From: an uncultured Desulfobacteraceae bacterium
GTDB taxonomy: Bacteria > Desulfobacterota > Desulfobacteria > Desulfobacterales > UBA5852
Assembly: GCA_913060875.1 (NCBI GenBank)
Contig: CAJXSL010000008.1
Coordinates: 18,807 to 82,806 of the forward strand
Length of the DNA: 64,000 bases
Direction: 5' to 3'
The translations under genes were made by a program, and so were the position numbers. The notes beneath the pieces are model-generated. The model was not told the DNA's origin. It saw only the letters and a program-made list of their open reading frames with translations, and made no database searches. Positions 36,965-59,210 of the stretch are shown here, one piece after another; position 1 is the stretch's first letter; each line of letters begins with the position of its first letter.

Positions 36965-37638
36965 CTATTTTCGGAACTTCCTCCGTCCCAAGCCGGCCAA
37001 GCCCACCAGACCAAGACCCATCAGGACCATGGTGGAGGGTTCCGGCACCTGGGCCACGTCGATGCGTACGGCGAAATCGTCGTGGTTGTCGTCGGGACCG
37101 GCGCCGCCGTCGTCGAGAAAGAGAATCAGGCTGGTGCCGGATGTGGCGGCGGGATCGCCCACAAAGCTCACCAAAAAGTTGGTGTAGATTTCCCCTTCAA
37201 TGGTTTCGTCCGGATTGGCGCCGTTTTCGAGAATTTCGGTGTTATTATTGATGCCGAACCAAAAGGGAATGACCCCGGCATCAAGGTAAAATGGCCCGGC
37301 CAGATCGGCGATGCCGACAACTATATTGGAGCCATAGTCTTCCGTGCTGAAAAGCTTCGTGCTGTCGAGAATGAAATCGTTTTGGTAACCGGCCTCGAAT
37401 CCCAGGAACGTAAAGTGAGATTGGCAGCTTCGGTCAATGCGATGGTGCTGCCATAGTACCCCTCAACGCGCGTGGTACCGGGACCGTAAAGGGTCTCCAC
37501 AAGATCGTTTTTTTCGCCGTCCGGAATGGCGCCGTATGTTCCGGGATCGGCTTCGATGCTTAACATGGGCAGGGCATGGGCGGCCGGGCATAAAAATATG
37601 AACAGCAGAACAATGAACAGACACAATCCTTTCCGCAT
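36965..37638 (-). pseudogene. PEP-CTERM protein gene with a 1-nt frameshift (pseudogene or sequencing error)
   Basis: SD plus signal peptide MRKGLCLF.. from 37638; adding one base at the A3 run 37412-37414 gives ..NLTFTFLGFEAGYQNDF.., open through VPEPSTMVLMGLGLVGLAGLGRRKFRK. Confidence 0.8.
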
Positions 37639-37686
37639 GCGTTTCTCCTTATGAGTTGTGGTAAAATGATTGACCGACACGTCCAC

Positions 37687-37702
37687 GGCAAGTCGTGTGC
37701 CA
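37687..37702 (-). promoter_or_regulatory. Sigma54 (-24/-12) promoter
   Basis: Minus strand TGGCACACGACTTGCC, about 50 nt upstream of the ATG. Confidence 0.8.
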
Positions 37703-38046
37703 TAATAAAAAATCATTAAAATACGATTAGATAGGCAATTCTATGTGGTAGCGCGCCGTGATGTGGAGGCCTGCTTGGGAATATTGTTTCCCATCCGGGG
37801 CGGATGCCACCGCTGACCTGATCGTCGTATCCTATGCGATCCTGCCCTAAGTCCTTAAGCAACAGATGTTAGGAAAGGATTTGCGCATTATGAAAATGTT
37901 TGCCTATTTGTCGGATTAAAAACTTGGATGCGCGACCCTATGGCTTTCCTAAAATGCGTGATGTAGAAGTTTAAAATACTATAAATAACAATGATTTAAA
38001 AGATTTTCGAACTGTGACGTCTGCGACGTAAAGCGTTCTCTGGTGA

Positions 38047-38062
38047 CGGCTCGGATATTGCA
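38047..38062 (+). promoter_or_regulatory. Sigma54 (-24/-12) promoter
   Basis: CGGCTCGGATATTGCA (GG-N10-GC); predicted TSS coincides with the riboswitch 5' end. Confidence 0.65.
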
Positions 38063-38069
38063 TTTACTG

Positions 38070-38152
38070 ACACAAAAGCCAAACCTGGCGGAAGCCGGGG
38101 ACGGAAAGCCACGGGTCCTAAATCGAACTTCGGATAGCCGGGTTGCTGAGAG
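38070..38152 (+). ncRNA. Cyclic di-GMP-I (GEMM) riboswitch
   Basis: GCCAAACC-TGGC-GGAA-GCCG-GGGACGGAAAGCCACGGGTCC...GGATAGCCGGGTTGC matches GEMM P2/P3 with a GNRA loop. Confidence 0.85.
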
Positions 38153-38195
38153 CAAGCCGGCTATTTTTGTCTGTATCGACATAAGGAGATGGGTT

Positions 38196-38771
38196 ATGAA
38201 GAAACTGTTGTGGGGTCTGTTCAGTGTGTTTTTATGTCTGGTATTCATCAGCCCGGCCGGTGCGATGGTTTGGGAGTTGGGCGTTGGTGGAAACGGGCAT
38301 GATTATGTGGTCGTCGGATTTGAGGACATTGCGTGGGGGGATACCTGGGGCGATATCTATAATCTCCTTGGCGATGGCTATGGGTTAGCCACCATTACCA
38401 GTCAGGCGGAACAGGATTTCGTTGAAAGTCTGCTGGCGGGCTATTCCGGCGAGTATTGGATCGGCGGATTCCAGAATCCTGGCGAGGCAGACCCCGAGGC
38501 CGGCTGGAATTGGGTCACGGGTACGGAGGATTGGCATTACACCAACTGGGCAAGCGATGAGCCCAACGACTACAATGGCATCGACGAGATGCACCTGGCC
38601 TTGTGGGACAAATACGAAGCGAACAGTTGGAAATGGAATGACGAGCATAACCGCTTTAACATCGCGGGCTATATCGCCGAAAGCCTGCCCGTGCCCGAAC
38701 CCGGCACCATCGTGCTGATGGGTTTGGCCCTGGTGGGGCTGGCGGGCATGGGGCGCAAGCGGTTCCGCTAA
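38196..38771 (+). CDS. PEP-CTERM protein with C-type lectin-like domain
   Basis: Signal peptide; LATITS, YWIGG, YTNWASDEPND, WKWND; VPEPGT-TM-RKRFR tail. Confidence 0.9.
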   Translation: MKKLLWGLFSVFLCLVFISPAGAMVWELGVGGNGHDYVVVGFEDIAWGDTWGDIYNLLGDGYGLATITSQAEQDFVESLLAGYSGEYWIGGFQNPGEADPEAGWNWVTGTEDWHYTNWASDEPNDYNGIDEMHLALWDKYEANSWKWNDEHNRFNIAGYIAESLPVPEPGTIVLMGLALVGLAGMGRKRFR

Positions 38772-38815
38772 CGTTCATGTGGGACGACAGCCCGTCCCGC
38801 TGGTCTTGTTTTGAC

Positions 38816-38854
38816 GCCGGCATCGTTGCCTATGGCAATGTTGCCGGCTTTTTT
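38816..38854 (+). terminator. Rho-independent terminator
   Basis: GCCGGCA..TTGCC-TAT-GGCAA..TGCCGGC followed by T6. Confidence 0.75.
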
Positions 38855-39063
38855 AGGCGGCCCCCATTTCGGAAAATCAGGCATGAGAATTCCATTTTCC
38901 TATAGGAATTAAAATCCATAATATTATGGGTAATTATAGGTTAAAGTATAGTCCTCCGAAGGCCTTCGAAACGACTATCAGACTTCTATTTGTTTAAATT
39001 AATAAAGTGATTTCGGTATGATAAATTTCATTCATCCCGCTTTCCGTGCTGTGGATCGATGAA

Positions 39064-39079
39064 CGGCACAACATTTGCT
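39064..39079 (+). promoter_or_regulatory. Sigma54 (-24/-12) promoter
   Basis: CGGCACAACATTTGCT (GG-N10-GC). Confidence 0.75.
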
Positions 39080-39089
39080 GAATGGCACC

Positions 39090-39175
39090 CCAGATAAAGC
39101 CAAACCTGGCGCGAGTCAGGGACGGAAAACCACGGATCTCCCAATGCTTGTGCGAGAACGCCGGGTTGCCTCTAC
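39090..39175 (+). ncRNA. Cyclic di-GMP-I (GEMM) riboswitch
   Basis: GCCAAACCTGGC-GCGA-GTCAGGGACGGAAAACCACGGATCTC...GAGAACGCCGGGTTGCC; paralogous to 38070-38152. Confidence 0.82.
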
Positions 39176-39275
39176 CGCGGGGTTGTTTGGTGAAGCGGCC
39201 CTGCCCACATCCAGAGTCGCTGGCGGACGCCTTCCGCCGGCATGATTTTAACGCACAACATGGGAGGAAAGCGTT

Positions 39276-39998
39276 ATGAAAAAAATTGCGTTGTTATCCG
39301 TCTTTTTAGTGCTGATCTTTTCGGGGTCCGCGTTTGCGCTTACCGCAACCTTTTTCGGGGAAGATGAAGGGTTGGGTGAAAACTCTCCTTTATTGTCTTA
39401 TCCGAACTCCACAGCTGCGGAAGCCGAATTTTTGTCTAACCTTGTTGGTGTGGGAACCGAAACATTTGAGAGTTATGCAGATAACACCTATGCGCCTCTC
39501 GGCATAGACTTTGGCGTTGCTGGCACAGCCACTCTTCAAGGTAGTGGCTATGTCAACGAAGTAACTCCGGGTACGACTAACGGTGCTGGTCGTTATGCTA
39601 TTTCGGGTTCCAAATATTGGGAAGCTACTAATTCGTTTTCCATTGAGTTCTCAGAAGCAATAGCAGCATTTGGTTTTTATGGTATCGACATCGGTGATTT
39701 TGGAGGTAACGTCGTCGTCGAACTGTTAAACGGAGAATCCATAGAATACGTTATCCCCCATGGAGTCAATGTCGAAGGTGGCGGCGTCCTCTACTGGGGA
39801 GTTATCGACACCGAGAATCTTTTTACCTCGGTCACGTTTTCCAATACAGCGGCTGGTGTTGACTATTTCGGTTTCGATAATTTCACCATCGGAAGCGTCG
39901 AACAAGTCGTGCCGACTCCCGAGCCCGGCACCATTTTCATGATGGGTCTCGGCCTGTTGGGTCTGGCCGGCATGGGCCGCAAGAAGCTGTTCAAATAA
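39276..39998 (+). CDS. PEP-CTERM sorting domain protein
   Basis: Signal peptide ending AFA; TPEPGTIFMMGLGLLGLAGMGRKKLFK tail. Confidence 0.92.
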   Translation: MKKIALLSVFLVLIFSGSAFALTATFFGEDEGLGENSPLLSYPNSTAAEAEFLSNLVGVGTETFESYADNTYAPLGIDFGVAGTATLQGSGYVNEVTPGTTNGAGRYAISGSKYWEATNSFSIEFSEAIAAFGFYGIDIGDFGGNVVVELLNGESIEYVIPHGVNVEGGGVLYWGVIDTENLFTSVTFSNTAAGVDYFGFDNFTIGSVEQVVPTPEPGTIFMMGLGLLGLAGMGRKKLFK

Positions 39999-40580: not shown

Positions 40581-42503
40581 ATGGACGCCACGGCGGCAGC
40601 GACTTCGGTAACCAATGCCAATCCAACAGCACCTGCAACGGGTCCTCGCTACAGCGAAATTGTGGACATGCTCCTGCGGGAGGGGTACGTCACCGATGAG
40701 CAGGTGGCCTATGCCCGCCGGGTGCAGGGCAAGCTGGAGACCCCGCGGCGGCTTCTGGACGTGCTCAAGGAGCTGGACTACATCAGCGGCGACCAGGTCA
40801 AAGCGGCCATCCAGGAAAACCGTTTGTCCATGCGTATCGGCAGCCTGCTGGTGGAGTTGGGCTATATTACCGAGCAGGCCCTTCAGAACGCCTTCGAGAT
40901 CCAGCGAGAGGACAAAAAACGGCCCAAACTGGGCGAAGTGCTGGTGGCCCACAATTTCATCAGCCAGAAACAGTTTCTGGAAGTCCTGTCTATCCAATTG
41001 GGATACCCGCTGGTGGCGCCCGAGTTCCTGCCCATCGACCCGAAACTTTTCACTCGGGTGCCGGGGCGCTGGTATGACAGCCACATGATGATTCCCATTC
41101 GCGAAGAAGGCGATCAAATCCTGATGGCTTTTGCCGATCCCCTGGACAAGGCTGAAATCAATGCGGCCCGCCAGGCGTTCAGCCAGGACATCCTGCCGGC
41201 CATTGCCGCCCCGGATGCCATCCGGGCCGCGGTGGACCAGGCCCGCAACGGTTTCAGCGCCGGCCGTTCAGCGGCCATGCGGGAAGACTCGGTGGTGGGG
41301 CAGGTGGACGCCATCATTGTGGCCGCGGTGGAGGCCGGGGCCAGCGACATTCACATCGAGCCTCTGAAAGACCGGTTGAGGATTCGCTTCCGCCAGGACG
41401 GCATCCTGGTACACCACAAGGATCTGCCCCGGGAGATCATTCCCTCCCTGACCAGCCGCATCAAGGTCATGTGCGAAGTGGACATTACCGAGAAACGGAG
41501 GCACCAGGGGGGGCGCATGCTGTTCGAGCGGGGAGGGATCAAGCTCGATCTGCGGGTCTCCTGCTATGTCACGGTGCATGGTGAAAAGATCGTCCTGCGC
41601 CTGCTCAACCGCAAGGCCGAACTGATCCAACTGGAAGATTTAGGCATGGCGCCCAAGATGCTGGAACGGTTCATCGAACATGCCCTGGAGCAGCCCAGCG
41701 GGGTTATTCTCATCACGGGGCCGACGGGATCCGGCAAGACCACCACGGTTTACAGCAGCATTAACCGCATCAACAGCCCCCAGATAAGCATTGCCACCGC
41801 CGAAGAGCCCGTGGAATACATGATCGACGGCATTGCCCAGTGCTCCATCAATCCCAAGATCAACCTGACCTTCGAGGAGACCCTCCGCCACATCGTGCGC
41901 CAGGATCCGGACGTTATCGTGATCGGGGAGATCCGCGACAATTTCTCCGCTGAAATCGCCGTCCAGGCCGCCCTGACCGGACACAAGGTGCTGACCACCT
42001 TTCATACCGAGGACAGCATCGGCGGGCTGATCCGGCTGCTCAATATGAATATCGAGGCCTTTCTGGTGTCCTCCACCGTGGTGAGCGTTCTCGCCCAGCG
42101 GCTGCTGCGGCGGGTCTGTCCGGCCTGCGCCGCCCCGGAAATGCCCAGGCCGGGCGATCTCCAACGCCTGGGCTACACGGCCGAAGCCGTCGCCGGAGCC
42201 AAATTCATGAAGGGGCAGGGCTGCTCGGAATGCGCCTACACGGGCTACAAGGGGCGCATCGGGGTCTATGAACTGCTGGTGCTGGATGAGATGGTCCGCA
42301 ACGCCCTGATCGAACAGCGCACCAGCCACGAGATTCGCTCCATCTGTATCGAGTCCACGGGACTGGTCACCCTCCTGGAAGACGGTATCGTCAAGGCCGC
42401 CGCCGGGGTGACCACCATCGAAGAAGTGCTGCGGTGCCTGCCGCGGCTCAATCGCCCGCGCCCGCTGGGAGAGCTGCGGCGCGCTCTGGGCGCGAGGGAA
42501 TAA
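40581..42503 (+). CDS. GspE/PilB family secretion/pilus ATPase with N-terminal MshEN-like repeats
   Basis: RIGSLLVELGYITEQALQNAFEIQ and KLGEVLV..; ASDIHIEP; GPTGSGKT; RQDPDVIVIGEIRD; two CxxC. Confidence 0.92.
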   Translation: MDATAAATSVTNANPTAPATGPRYSEIVDMLLREGYVTDEQVAYARRVQGKLETPRRLLDVLKELDYISGDQVKAAIQENRLSMRIGSLLVELGYITEQALQNAFEIQREDKKRPKLGEVLVAHNFISQKQFLEVLSIQLGYPLVAPEFLPIDPKLFTRVPGRWYDSHMMIPIREEGDQILMAFADPLDKAEINAARQAFSQDILPAIAAPDAIRAAVDQARNGFSAGRSAAMREDSVVGQVDAIIVAAVEAGASDIHIEPLKDRLRIRFRQDGILVHHKDLPREIIPSLTSRIKVMCEVDITEKRRHQGGRMLFERGGIKLDLRVSCYVTVHGEKIVLRLLNRKAELIQLEDLGMAPKMLERFIEHALEQPSGVILITGPTGSGKTTTVYSSINRINSPQISIATAEEPVEYMIDGIAQCSINPKINLTFEETLRHIVRQDPDVIVIGEIRDNFSAEIAVQAALTGHKVLTTFHTEDSIGGLIRLLNMNIEAFLVSSTVVSVLAQRLLRRVCPACAAPEMPRPGDLQRLGYTAEAVAGAKFMKGQGCSECAYTGYKGRIGVYELLVLDEMVRNALIEQRTSHEIRSICIESTGLVTLLEDGIVKAAAGVTTIEEVLRCLPRLNRPRPLGELRRALGARE

Positions 42504-42506
42504 CAC

Positions 42507-43340
42507 ATGCAGCAGTCCATCGTCGACATTTTTGAATACCTGGCCACCAAGGACATCCAACTGCCGATTTTTGACCGCACGGCCATGCAGATCCAGGACG
42601 AACTTACCAAGCCCGAGCCGGACACGCGGACCATTGAATCCCTGATCGTGAAAGACCAGACCCTGACCAGCCAGGTGTTGAAGGTGGCCAATTCGTCTTT
42701 CTACAAAGGCTTGGCGGAGGTCACCACCGTGCGCAGCGCTATTGTGCGGCTGGGCATCAAGGAAGTGGCCAACATGGTGACGCTGATAGCCCATCGCGGA
42801 TACTTCAAGGCCCGGGATCCTCTGCTGCGTCAACGCATGAACGATCTATGGCGGCATTCAATCGCCTGCGCCATCGGCGCCAAGTGGCTGGCGGAAAAGA
42901 GCGGCTTCGACGTACCATCCAACGAAGCCTTTTTTGCCGGTTTGCTGCACGATGTGGGCAAGCTGTTCATCGTCACCGTGCTGGAAAAGCTGAAAAAAGC
43001 CAAAGACCTGAATTGTCTGCCTTCCGAAGCCCTGATCGACGAGATCATTGCCAGCCTGCACGGCAAGCACGGCTACGCCATCATGCGCAACTGGAATCTG
43101 CCGGAGAAATATTGTCTCATCGCCCGTGACCACCATGCCGAAGATTTCGATACGGATAATGTCCTGTTGTGCCTCGTGCGCCAGGCCAACATGACATGCC
43201 ATAAAATCGGTGTCGGCCTGCGTTCGGATGTCGATCTAGTGCTTTCCGCCACACGGGAAGCCGGACTGCTGGGAATGACGGACATGGACATGGCCCGACT
43301 GGAGATCCATTTGGAGGATGCCAAACTGTTGGCTGCATGA
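42507..43340 (+). CDS. HDOD domain protein
   Basis: LKVANSSFY, AIVRLG, LWRHS, AGLLHDVGK, WNLP. Confidence 0.92.
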   Translation: MQQSIVDIFEYLATKDIQLPIFDRTAMQIQDELTKPEPDTRTIESLIVKDQTLTSQVLKVANSSFYKGLAEVTTVRSAIVRLGIKEVANMVTLIAHRGYFKARDPLLRQRMNDLWRHSIACAIGAKWLAEKSGFDVPSNEAFFAGLLHDVGKLFIVTVLEKLKKAKDLNCLPSEALIDEIIASLHGKHGYAIMRNWNLPEKYCLIARDHHAEDFDTDNVLLCLVRQANMTCHKIGVGLRSDVDLVLSATREAGLLGMTDMDMARLEIHLEDAKLLAA

Positions 43341-57753: not shown

Positions 57754-59121
57754 CTAAAGCTCCCGGTGCAAATCGATGCCGTATTTTCTGATCCGTTTCC
57801 AAACCGTGACACGACTGACCCCCAGGCGCCGGGCCGCTTCGGACTGGTTGCCGTTCGCCTTTCGCAGGGCCATCATCAGGGCCTCGCGCTCCGGGGTAGA
57901 GCCGGCATCGACGCGGCGGGCGGCGGTGCCGGGTCCGGCTTCTCCCTGTGTAATGCGGTGAGGCAGATGCTCGGGGCCTATCCAGCCGCCGGGACACAGG
58001 ACAAAGGCATATTCGACGGTGTTGCGCAACTCACGCACATTGCCGGGCCAGGCATAGGCCAGCAGGGCATCCAGGGCGTCGGGCGAAAATCCCTCAATGG
58101 TTTTTCCGCTGCGCTGGTTGTTTTGCCGAATAAAGTTCTGGACCAGGGCTGGGATGTCTTCCATGCGATCCCGCAACCCGGGCATGGTCAGGGGAAAGAC
58201 ATTGATGCGAAAAAAGAGGTCTTCGCGAAAGCGATTCTCGGCCACGCTTTGGTCCAGATCCTTGTTGGTGGCCGATATCACCCGGACATCCACCTGAATT
58301 GGCTTGTGGTCCCCCACCCGTTCGATTTCCTTTTCCTCCAGAACCCGCAGGAGTTTGACCTGGGTGGCCGGGGGAATATCGCCGATCTCGTCCAGGAAAA
58401 TGGTGCCCCCGTGGGCGGCTTCGAACCGCCCGACGCGATCCCGGTCTGCGCCGGTGTAGGCTCCTTTGACATGACCGAAGAGTTCGCTTTCCAACAGATT
58501 TTCGTTGAGGGCGGCACAGTTGACCTTGATAAAAGGTTTGTTTTTGCGGGGGCCCGCTTCGTGTACGGCGCGGGCGGCGAGTTCTTTTCCGGTGCCGCTG
58601 GGCCCGTGGATCAGCACCGGGGCATCGCTCTGGGCGACATTGTCGATGAGTTCAAACAGGCGCTGCATGGGGGGCGCATGGCCGATAATGCCGTGGAATC
58701 CGTCATCAAGGTGGCAGGACTGGCGCAGGGAATTGATTTCCTGCTGCTGGCGGACGACTTCGGAGATGTCGGTGAGGGTTTCGATGGCACCGACCACCCG
58801 GCCGTGATCATCCTTCAGCACCGTGGCATTCTTCATGACGAACAGGGCGCGGCCGCTTTTGTCGGTAATCGTGCATTTCTTGGCACGAATGCGCTTGTTG
58901 ACATAGAGACCGCACCAATCCTTGCCGGCGCCCCGGCCGAAAATCTGGCACCCCGAGCAGTTCAGTATCCGGCAGTTCTGGCCCACCAGTTCCTCGGCCG
59001 AATAACCGGTCAGTTTTTCCGCGGCCGGATTCACGTTCAGGATCGTTCCCCGGGTGTCGACCACGAGCAGGCCGTCGTGCAGGGTGTTGACGATGGTTTC
59101 CCAGAAACTGGCGATATCCAT
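57754..59121 (-). CDS. Sigma54-dependent enhancer-binding protein (PAS-AAA-Fis)
   Basis: Cys-rich PAS; GPSGTGKE; [15 protein letters not shown]; WPGNVREL; Fis HTH. Confidence 0.94.
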
Positions 59122-59210
59122 TACGGTGGCTCCTTTTTTATTTTCGAAAACCGCTTGCCTCCCGGTCCGTGTGATGGGTCGACCATTTGGGGATGGCGGT
59201 TTTGCTAATC

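Follow-up and report, generated by a model that had tools for sequence, protein, structure and literature searches.

Sigma-54 promoters and c-di-GMP riboswitches have each been described at genes for exosortase-sorted proteins. According to the accessible text of Haft et al. (2006; PMC1569441), 99 out of 167 PEP-CTERM genes from proteobacteria have a sigma-54 motif in their upstream region, and the accessible part of PMC12530212 describes several adjacent PEP-CTERM-type genes in Methylophaga nitratireducenticrescens GP59, each with a c-di-GMP riboswitch of its own. For Vibrio cholerae gbpA, the accessible part of PMC4545359 reports control by two signals, the first acting at initiation and the second through a GEMM-I leader. 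Both parts, the sigma-54 promoter and the GEMM-I riboswitch, are thus already known, and their fusion was found in no paper; our literature search returned none that joins the two, and subscription journals and supplements may contain one.

Here we describe a locus within a 64,000-nt stretch of DNA from an uncultured Desulfobacteraceae bacterium, the whole of which is referred to as the window. We consider it fairly probable that two of its genes, here called genes 1 and 2, form separate units of a sigma-54 promoter and a GEMM-I riboswitch, which would place exosortase-sorted surface proteins under AND-like control by an enhancer signal and c-di-GMP.

PEP-CTERM genes and sigma-54-type sites

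An earlier, sequence-only reading of the window had named three PEP-CTERM genes, each with a GG-N10-GC promoter (37687-37702 on the minus strand, 38047 and 39064). All three genes scored above the Pfam and TIGR02595 cut-offs, the three motifs were found at these positions, and a sigma-54-type site precedes every one of the genes (Table 1). The broken minus-strand gene has its N-terminal part, signal peptide included, in one frame and its C-terminal part with the PEP-CTERM tail in another, the fragment at 36965-37174 scoring 37.4 bits with PF07589 and 28.8 bits with TIGR02595; its site lies about 45 nt 5' of the ATG at 37641, and no riboswitch was found 3' of that site. Gene 1 encodes a C-type lectin domain (PF00059, 33.7 bits, cut-off 22.6) and a PEP-CTERM signal (PF07589, 28.5 bits; TIGR02595 also above cut-off), and the terminator that follows it implies that gene 2 needs a promoter of its own. 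The PEP-CTERM signal of gene 2 scored 27.0 bits with PF07589 and 21 bits with TIGR02595, and no homolog of this gene was found at E<=1e-10 in the 15 other genomes of the family. Locating the exosortase, as the sequence-only reading had suggested, gave two EpsH-family enzymes above the cut-off of 105.55 bits, both outside the window on other contigs (C21:15667-16365, 153.2 bits; C19:9916-10635, 127 bits). Close to the PEP-CTERM genes of the window are genes for an HDOD protein and for an MshEN ATPase that binds c-di-GMP.

Table 1. Coordinates of the features discussed, in window positions.
Feature	Position	Strand	Details
Broken PEP-CTERM gene	36965-37641	minus	One frameshift (three-frame translation); frame switch near 37415-37430
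Sigma-54-type -24/-12 site TGGCACACGACTTGCC	37702->37687	minus	Motif search; 10/12 consensus positions by reading
Sigma-54-type site CGGCTCGGATATTGCA	38047-38062	+	GG 38048-49, GC 38060-61; 10/12 positions
GEMM-I aptamer 1	38069-38151	+	Infernal/Rfam: RF03167 70.8 bits, RF01051 65.1 bits
Predicted intrinsic terminator, riboswitch 1	38134-38170	+	Hairpin 38134-38164, then T run; inverted repeat I2, 93% complementary
Gene 1	38196-38771	+	191 aa; signal peptide, C-type lectin domain, PEP-CTERM
Predicted terminator 3' of gene 1	38816-38854	+	Hairpin and TTTTTT; inverted repeat I3; terminator scan row 38833-38846
Sigma-54-type site CGGCACAACATTTGCT	39064-39079	+	GG 39065-66, GC 39077-78; 10/12 positions
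GEMM-I aptamer 2	39090-39174	+	Infernal/Rfam: RF03167 65.4 bits, RF01051 57.0 bits
GC-rich terminator-like hairpin	39219-39250	+	Hairpin 39219-39241, then ATGATTTTAA; terminator scan
Ribosome-binding region of gene 2	39246-39272	+	GGGAGG 39262-39267; complementary to aptamer P3 5' strand and loop
Gene 2	39276-39998	+	240 aa; signal peptide and PEP-CTERM, no further recognised domain

Sites were scored by the number of matches among the 12 specified positions of the sigma-54 promoter consensus TGGCACG-N4-TTGCW. The 5.89-Mb genome, with both strands counted, has 410 sites of 10/12 quality, corresponding to 3.5e-5 per position and strand. The looser motif GGCNC-N5-TTGC was not enriched, occurring 10 times in the window (6.3±2.3 expected) and 309 times genome-wide (about 282 expected); counts of this motif, being at chance level, were rejected as stand-alone evidence, and the weight of the sites therefore rests on their position and conservation. 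As to position, sites of at least 10/12 were found within 450 nt upstream of 7 of the 19 PEP-CTERM ORFs of this genome, where about 0.3 would be expected (the seventh being the broken minus-strand gene, whose site was found by reading), and within 150 nt upstream of 3 of its 19 GEMM-I aptamers, where about 0.1 would be expected. It counts against our main reading that the other 16 aptamers have no such site within 150 nt and that five of the eight riboswitch-led PEP-CTERM genes of this genome have none scoring at least 10.

The genome encodes RpoN (457 bits, cut-off 277) and shows 58 matches of at least 231 bits to the sigma-54-interaction domain, and a PAS-AAA+-HTH activator is found inside the window at 57775-59190. 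A link of such genes to sigma54-PrsR control, which the sequence-only reading had brought in, found no support in this genome, where no PrsR equivalog (TIGR02915) reached the cut-off of 502.6 bits, the best of 114 matches scoring 444.6 bits, and where both exosortases lie on contigs other than that of the window. For PrsK (TIGR02916), nothing was found at E<=1e-40, in a search whose control gave no match in any genome either. In a repeat search and a k-mer comparison of seven upstream regions, all that emerged were short repeats rich in AT and, at some loci, a GGGTAATTA-like word; no enhancer site common to these loci was found, a point against our main reading, nor could a cognate activator be assigned.

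Aptamers and expression platforms

The Infernal search with the Rfam c-di-GMP-I model, proposed in the sequence-only reading, placed both aptamers above the gathering score of RF01051 (35). Both also exceeded that of RF03167, the 'GGC' variant (59), which is the best model for either aptamer and beats RF01051 by 6-8 bits. The G at the G20-equivalent position and the C21-G46 swap noted earlier are visible in the Infernal alignment of both aptamers, in whose numbering position 10 is the Vc2 G20 equivalent, 11/36 the 21-46 pair and 37 the A47 equivalent: aptamer 1 has G38078 (G20), the flipped pair C38079/G38104, A38105 (A47) and C38146 (C92), and aptamer 2 has G39099, C39100/G39125, A39126 and C39169 at the corresponding places. 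The consensus of RF03167 has G at model position 37 and G/C at 11/36, where both window aptamers have A and C/G, respectively. Going by the consensus, 'GGC' probably names positions 20, 47 and 92, and the G at 37 is probably the defining change; the papers found to contain the name of the c-di-GMP-I-GGC variant do no more than list it. A G at this variant-marking position was seen in none of 45 related aptamers, in an alignment partly read by eye.

The A that marks the cGAMP subclass at the G20 position is absent from the window aptamers, both of which have G; it does occur at position 20 of two homologous aptamers from other species (L059 and L060). G20 and C92 are ligand contacts according to the recognition rule in the accessible text of PMC6140456, and because the equivalents of G20, A47 and C92 are all present, the sequence makes c-di-GMP most likely the ligand of both aptamers. 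The earlier preference for c-di-GMP over the A20 cGAMP subclass is thereby backed by G20 under the same rule. The flipped 21-46 pair, found in nearly all aptamers of this lineage, adjoins the ligand pocket, which counts against our main reading.

That the aptamers of the two genes set in near the expected transcription start, as had been proposed, was borne out by their geometry. The -12 C lies 7 nt from aptamer model position 1 at riboswitch 1 and 11 nt from it at riboswitch 2. At riboswitch 2, a start predicted 12 nt past the -12 C would be the first position of the aptamer; at riboswitch 1 it would fall on model position 5, inside the aptamer model and within a weak P1 of only two standard pairs and one non-standard pair. 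A canonical start at riboswitch 1 would thus remove the 5' strand of P1, another point against our main reading.

The predicted terminator of riboswitch 1 takes its 5' arm from the P3 3' strand, the junction and the P1 3' strand of the aptamer, and terminator and aptamer would therefore be mutually exclusive. The MFE fold of this leader has a z of -3.9, and the aptamer-enforced fold was calculated at -31.3 kcal/mol against -52.0 kcal/mol for the free fold. The same terminator design was found in four further leaders (L053, L054, L034 and L048). By its in silico structure, riboswitch 1 is an antitermination ON switch, a function that we infer from the modelled folds.

The switching logic of riboswitch 2 is less settled, since the GC-rich hairpin at 39219-39241 is predicted to form whether or not aptamer 2 is folded (pair probability 0.96-0.98); a plain antitermination platform was rejected on this ground. 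In the free MFE fold, the ribosome-binding region of gene 2 pairs with the P3 region, and this duplex was calculated at -26.4 kcal/mol, compared to -14.6±2.9 kcal/mol for shuffled sequences, none of the 500 shuffles reaching the native value. The pairing is a candidate sequestration helix, and on these models riboswitch 2 probably frees the ribosome-binding site upon ligand binding.

Conservation and recurrence of the arrangement

Homologs of the lectin gene (gene 1) were found in 5 of the 15 other genomes of the family. Four of the five have a GEMM-I aptamer, and GG-N10-GC adjoins the aptamer in three cases and lies 37 nt upstream in a fourth, with divergent flanks. In the homologous leaders L057, L058 and L059, GG-N10-GC is kept in flanks that differ from the surroundings of 38047-38062. 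The promoter-aptamer gap is 6 nt in L058 and L059, whose sites reach only 9/12 by reading and thus fall below the listing threshold of 10, which counts against our main reading. Counterparts of the 39064 site in the same-genus loci L053, L054 and L068 retain GGCAC-N5-TTGC at gaps of 10-12 nt.

Across 401 genomes of the order, a strict pattern of promoter plus aptamer gave 39 matches in 32 genomes, compared to 4 for the reversed pattern run over the same genomes as a control. Rfam confirmed 22 of the 37 pattern loci outside the window's own genome, and with that genome included the confirmed set comprises 24 loci in 18 genomes and 12 families. At positions that the pattern leaves free, the 22 confirmed foreign loci agree with the consensus TGGCAC-N5-TTGCW, 16 of them having T at -26, 20 having A at -22 and all 22 having A or T at -11. 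In 20 of these 22 loci the promoter-aptamer gap measures 11 nt or more, and a PEP-CTERM gene follows in 8 of the 22. Judged from the comparison of leaders and this order-wide pattern, the predicted sigma-54-type sites are real, and by the same sequence comparisons the promoter-riboswitch arrangement is a recurrent design in the order and not a local accident.

The leaders of genes 1 and 2 align pairwise over the aptamer core only, their promoter-aptamer spacing differs by 4 nt, their expression platforms differ, and each has closest counterparts of its own in other genomes, all of which makes a recent local duplication unlikely. The sequence-only reading had taken them for a copied promoter-riboswitch cassette, an idea that is only weakly supported and was rejected on the pairwise alignment.

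Proposed two-input control, its alternatives and known systems

On the reading that we favour, each transcript would begin with the GEMM-I aptamer or within a few nucleotides of its start, and initiation would require an active enhancer-binding protein, presumably one of the many of this genome. For gene 1, the terminator, which takes over the aptamer's 3' half, would stop the transcript at about 38170 when ligand is lacking, and bound ligand would hold the aptamer together and let the polymerase read through. For gene 2, less firmly, the P3 5' strand and loop may pair with the ribosome-binding region when no ligand is bound, and ligand may release it. Matrix and surface proteins would then be made only when the enhancer signal coincides with a high second-messenger level. 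ON-type logic behind an enhancer-dependent promoter would amount to the AND-like gate of the sequence-only reading, of which the ON logic is clear for riboswitch 1 and only plausible for riboswitch 2; the enhancer dependence of the promoter we infer. A sigma-54 promoter shows hardly any basal activity, and an ON riboswitch that lacks its ligand prevents elongation or translation; placed in series, the two would form a natural AND gate that is very tight, at genes for surface and matrix proteins that are costly to make.

It is unlikely, in our judgement, that the riboswitches are real and the GG-N10-GC motifs are not working promoters, transcription starting instead at upstream sigma-70 promoters and yielding a leader with a complete P1. 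Such starts would avoid the truncation of P1 at riboswitch 1 and would sit well with the chance-level count of the loose motif and the 16 of 19 aptamers without a sigma-54-type site. A sigma-70-like site does lie at 38993-39022, some 60 nt 5' of riboswitch 2, and counts against our main reading; however, the region has 4 sigma-70-like sites where 3.9 would be expected by chance, and a scan of the region found none 5' of riboswitch 1. Working sigma-54 promoters are favoured by the retention of GG-N10-GC in homologous leaders despite divergent flanks, by the excess of order-wide matches over the control, by the free positions of the 22 confirmed loci, and by the published sigma-54 link of PEP-CTERM genes (PMC1569441, accessible text).

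A gate other than a plain AND also seems improbable, whether because riboswitch 2 turns expression off or does not regulate it, or because the enhancer-binding protein itself responds to c-di-GMP in a feed-forward loop that reads one signal twice. The hairpin that forms regardless of aptamer 2 and a P3 3' strand that, by reading, could pair with the 5' arm of this hairpin would suit such an alternative, as would the nearby c-di-GMP-binding MshEN ATPase and HDOD protein; against it stand the classical aptamer-versus-terminator ON design of riboswitch 1 and its four relatives and the complementarity at riboswitch 2 that beats all 500 shuffles. We regard it as very improbable that some ligand different from c-di-GMP is sensed here: the higher score of RF03167, the 21-46 pair flipped under the pocket in nearly all aptamers of the lineage and the A at position 20 in two homologs would point that way, but the two window aptamers retain G20, the A of model position 37 and the C92 equivalent, the variant-marking G is missing from all 45 aptamers in the partly eye-read alignment, and the downstream genes are typical c-di-GMP targets.

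Returning to two-input control by enhancer signal and c-di-GMP, a wider version of it is tentative and, to our minds, rather doubtful. It holds that the gate is widespread in the order, that the lectin subgroup uses P1-less sensors with P3 as the switching helix, and that a G20/A20 toggle may rewire c-di-GMP to cGAMP sensing. Among the 401 genomes sampled, at least 18, from 12 families, have gate-type loci; at the gaps of 6-7 nt in the lectin subgroup the RNA would begin inside P1, which suggests a two-hairpin sensor of this kind; and position 20 varies between G and A within this one homologous group. The promoter-riboswitch arrangement would connect the PEP-CTERM/exosortase cargo, itself poorly understood, directly with c-di-GMP signalling in bacteria of anaerobic sediments. 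The 24 Rfam-confirmed loci offer a test set for the coordination of riboswitch folding with promoter type, and allow asking whether GEMM-I functions without P1 and how an exchange between G20 and A20 would rewire homologous genes; being compact, the design would also lend itself to reuse in synthetic biology.

Among known systems, Vc2-type c-di-GMP-I riboswitches (RF01051, clan CL00126) share with the window RNAs the two-hairpin core, the G20 and C92 equivalents, the ON-type terminator platform and surface and matrix genes as targets. The window aptamers differ from them in a 21-46 pair that is C-G and not G-C, in a very short P1, and in that their RNAs appear to start at or inside P1, directly past a predicted sigma-54 promoter. 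The c-di-GMP-I-GGC model (RF03167) scores best here, yet the window aptamers have A at its position 37 and C/G at 11/36. The system of Haft et al. is alike in its single-gene PEP-CTERM units behind long intergenic regions with a -24/-12 motif, and the distance to the start codon here is within the published range (maximum 221 nt; PMC1569441, accessible text). It differs in that a riboswitch here stands between promoter and gene, the word 'riboswitch' occurring 0 times in that paper, and in that neither a PrsR equivalog at cut-off nor a shared upstream activator motif was found in our case. The GP59 genes belong to a gammaproteobacterium, and the accessible part of PMC12530212 does not describe their promoter type. 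At gbpA, as far as the accessible part of PMC4545359 goes, the first signal is cAMP-CRP at a sigma-70 promoter, in contrast to the predicted sigma-54 promoters fused to an aptamer in the window.

Aptamers and genes of the PEP-CTERM cluster

The region from 36.9 to 40.0 kb of the window comprises three single-gene units, all encoding PEP-CTERM proteins (see table). Exactly two Rfam matches were found in the 64-kb window using Infernal, both to GEMM-I clan aptamers and above the gathering scores, bearing out the sequence-only reading that such aptamers lie in two of the PEP-CTERM leaders; the whole genome has 19 GEMM-I matches.

Features of the PEP-CTERM cluster, its surroundings and a further unit of the same genome (C, contig)
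Feature	Position	Strand	Remarks
TRAP transporter DctM/DctP			one flank of the cluster
Third PEP-CTERM gene	36965-37641	-	one frameshift near 37415-37430
Aptamer 1	38069-38151		RF03167 70.8 bits (gathering score 59); RF01051 65.1 bits (gathering score 35)
Gene 1	38196-38771	+	signal peptide, C-type lectin domain (PF00059, 33.7 bits), PEP-CTERM
Terminator of gene 1	38816-38854
Aptamer 2	39090-39174		RF03167 65.4 bits (gathering score 59); RF01051 57.0 bits (gathering score 35)
Gene 2	39276-39998	+	signal peptide and PEP-CTERM only
GspE/PilB-type ATPase and HDOD/HD protein	40581-43340	+	directly downstream; MshEN c-di-GMP-binding domain in ATPase (PF05157, 57.9 bits; NF053729, 68 bits)
Third promoter-aptamer-PEP-CTERM unit	C4:117735-117942		47 nt from GC doublet to aptamer

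The Rfam alignment also agreed with the earlier reading in detail: in both aptamers, model position 10, equivalent to Vc2 G20, is G, and C/G at positions 11/36 shows the swap of the 21-46 pair noted there. Assignment to the c-di-GMP-I-GGC variant (RF03167) is contradicted by the marking letter of that model, an upper-case G in the consensus at position 37, which is A in both aptamers; the meaning of "GGC" is presumed here from the model consensus. C was found at the C92 equivalent in both. Passages of PMC6140456 describe contacts of G20 and C92 as reading the two guanines of c-di-GMP, and A at position 20 in cGAMP riboswitches; judged by these residues, the ligand pocket of both aptamers looks canonical for c-di-GMP. 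The G20 equivalent is A in the aptamers preceding homologs of the lectin gene (gene 1) in two related genomes, at L059 (2022-2106, minus strand) and L060 (1352-1441, plus strand), which reads as a cGAMP-type signature, while the window copy has G. The L060 homolog contains four stop codons.

The lectin domain of gene 1 carries an EPN tripeptide (…SDEPNDYNG…), which we take to be the mannose-type sugar-binding motif of animal C-type lectins; to our knowledge, such a domain is an unusual cargo for an exosortase substrate. The signal-peptide and PEP-CTERM halves of the minus-strand gene lie in different frames, which may reflect either a pseudogene or a misassembly of the 30-contig draft. Many c-di-GMP parts are encoded around the cluster. 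The two exosortases of the genome are both on other contigs.

Sigma-54-type sites and their conservation

The GG-N10-GC sites of all three genes were present as proposed: TGGCACACGACTTGCC (minus strand), CGGCTCGGATATTGCA and CGGCACAACATTTGCT, each matching 10 of 12 specified positions of the sigma-54 -24/-12 consensus used for scoring. As gene 1 has its own terminator, gene 2 needs its own promoter. The loose motif by itself is not evidence, occurring 10 times in the window (6.3±2.3 expected) and 309 times in the genome (about 282 expected), and the case for promoters rests on position in the genome, homologous loci and an order-wide pattern.

Sites scoring at least 10/12 have a frequency of 3.5e-5 per position and strand in the genome. 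Of 19 PEP-CTERM ORFs identified by a regex search, 7 have such a site in the 450 nt preceding them (about 0.3 expected; six from the script, plus the site of the frameshifted gene, added by reading), as do 3 of the 19 aptamers in the preceding 150 nt (about 0.1 expected). Eight of the 19 ORFs have an aptamer at most 400 nt upstream. At C25:38800-42750 there is a group of five PEP-CTERM ORFs. Three follow GEMM-I aptamers in which P3 has a long insert, and no site scoring at least 10 adjoins these aptamers. Those at C25:41952 and C25:41180 are true local copies, as they share nearly identical upstream sequence. Pairwise alignment gave no support to a recently copied promoter-riboswitch cassette in the window, the two leaders not being recent copies of each other. 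The same word, TGCATAATTTTTGCAT, precedes the aptamers at C13:161585 and C1:1076088; it has a -12-like TTGCA, yet TG replaces GG at the -24 position, and may represent a different type of promoter or operator.

Among 15 further genomes from the family, five carry homologs of the lectin gene, and four of these five have a GEMM-I aptamer upstream of it. Sites adjoin the aptamer at L057 (CGGTACGTTTTTTGCA), L058 (CGGTTCGAATCTTGCA) and L059 (CGGTACAATTTTTGCT), and at L060 TGGCGCAAATATTGCT lies 37 nt upstream of it. The sequence around these sites has diverged; those of L058 and L059 match just 9/12 consensus positions.

Across 401 genomes of the order, a strict pattern ([GGCNC-N5-TTGC], 6-36 nt, [GSCAAAYY, 10-17 nt, GACG]) gave 39 matches in 32 genomes versus 4 for the pattern read backward. 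Rfam confirmed the aptamer in 22 of 37 loci outside the window's genome; including that genome, confirmed loci occur in 18 genomes from 12 families. Positions left free by the pattern follow the sigma-54 consensus in the 22 loci (-26 is T in 16, -22 is A in 20, and -11 is A or T in all). The first downstream ORF encodes a PEP-CTERM protein in eight, is a long ORF exceeding the stretch read in six and encodes another protein in five; three have no ORF before the contig end. On these sequences, the promoter-aptamer arrangement is judged real and conserved. Genome G074 has five copies of the pattern (L028, L063-L066) before long ORFs (>450 aa), with N-termini alike in at least three; L066 did not reach the gathering score in Rfam.

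The genome carries rpoN, and its strong matches to the sigma-54-interaction domain number 58, in line with the very high activator counts described for Desulfobacteria in passages of PMC12316311. The suggested link to PrsR was not supported, as PrsR was not detected at equivalog level in the genome; PrsK likewise gave no equivalog-level match there, in a search whose control matched nowhere. Repeat and upstream-region comparison found no common enhancer site. A PAS-AAA+(sigma-54 interaction)-HTH_8 enhancer-binding protein is encoded 18 kb from the cluster (57775-59190, minus strand), with nothing to link it to the promoters of the cluster.

Predicted switching and transcription starts

In the free fold of the gene 1 leader (riboswitch 1), P3 and P1 are replaced by a 14+14-bp hairpin (38134-38164) followed by a T run, the two folds being mutually exclusive. 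Since the free fold is more stable (-52.0 versus -31.3 kcal/mol with the aptamer enforced), termination is predicted to be the default, with the ligand-held aptamer as antiterminator. The terminator design recurs in L053, L054, L034 and L048, and by eye in the lectin-gene homologs. In the gene 2 leader (riboswitch 2), a terminator-like hairpin (39219-39241) has a probability of 0.96-0.98 irrespective of the aptamer. The ribosome-binding region of this leader is complementary to the P3 5' strand and loop, and their helix is present in the free fold; the duplex (-26.4 kcal/mol, versus -14.6±2.9 for shuffles) was reached by 0 of 500 shuffles. With less confidence than for riboswitch 1, a translational ON switch is predicted.

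In the 22 confirmed loci, the gap between the -12 C and the first aptamer position is 7-26 nt. As 20 have at least 11 nt, a start located 12 nt beyond this C would fall at or shortly before the aptamer, as the sequence-only reading expected. This does not hold for riboswitch 1, where the gap is 7 nt (L057, 12 nt; L058 and L059, 6 nt) and a start at the canonical distance would be at model position 5, cutting off the P1 5' strand. Transcription may here start unusually close to the GC doublet, or be driven in part by another promoter. Alternatively, the lectin-gene subgroup may not need P1 and may switch through P3; the P1 of riboswitch 1 consists of just two standard pairs plus a non-standard one.

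Comparison with known systems

Enhancer-dependent promoters have almost no basal activity. Such a promoter with an ON riboswitch behind it would give AND-like control, its two inputs being an activator signal and raised c-di-GMP.

A sigma-54 motif has been reported before 99 of 167 proteobacterial PEP-CTERM genes in PMC1569441, a paper that does not contain the word "riboswitch". According to passages of PMC12530212, c-di-GMP riboswitches precede adjacent PEP-CTERM genes in a Methylophaga strain, and gbpA is described in PMC4545359 as under dual control by a promoter-level regulator and a GEMM-I leader. In the literature covered, to which Weinberg et al. 2017 with its supplements might add, no paper was found to describe the fusion of a GEMM-I aptamer with a sigma-54 promoter. 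The parts of the arrangement are each in print, and its apparent novelty lies in the joining of promoter and aptamer.
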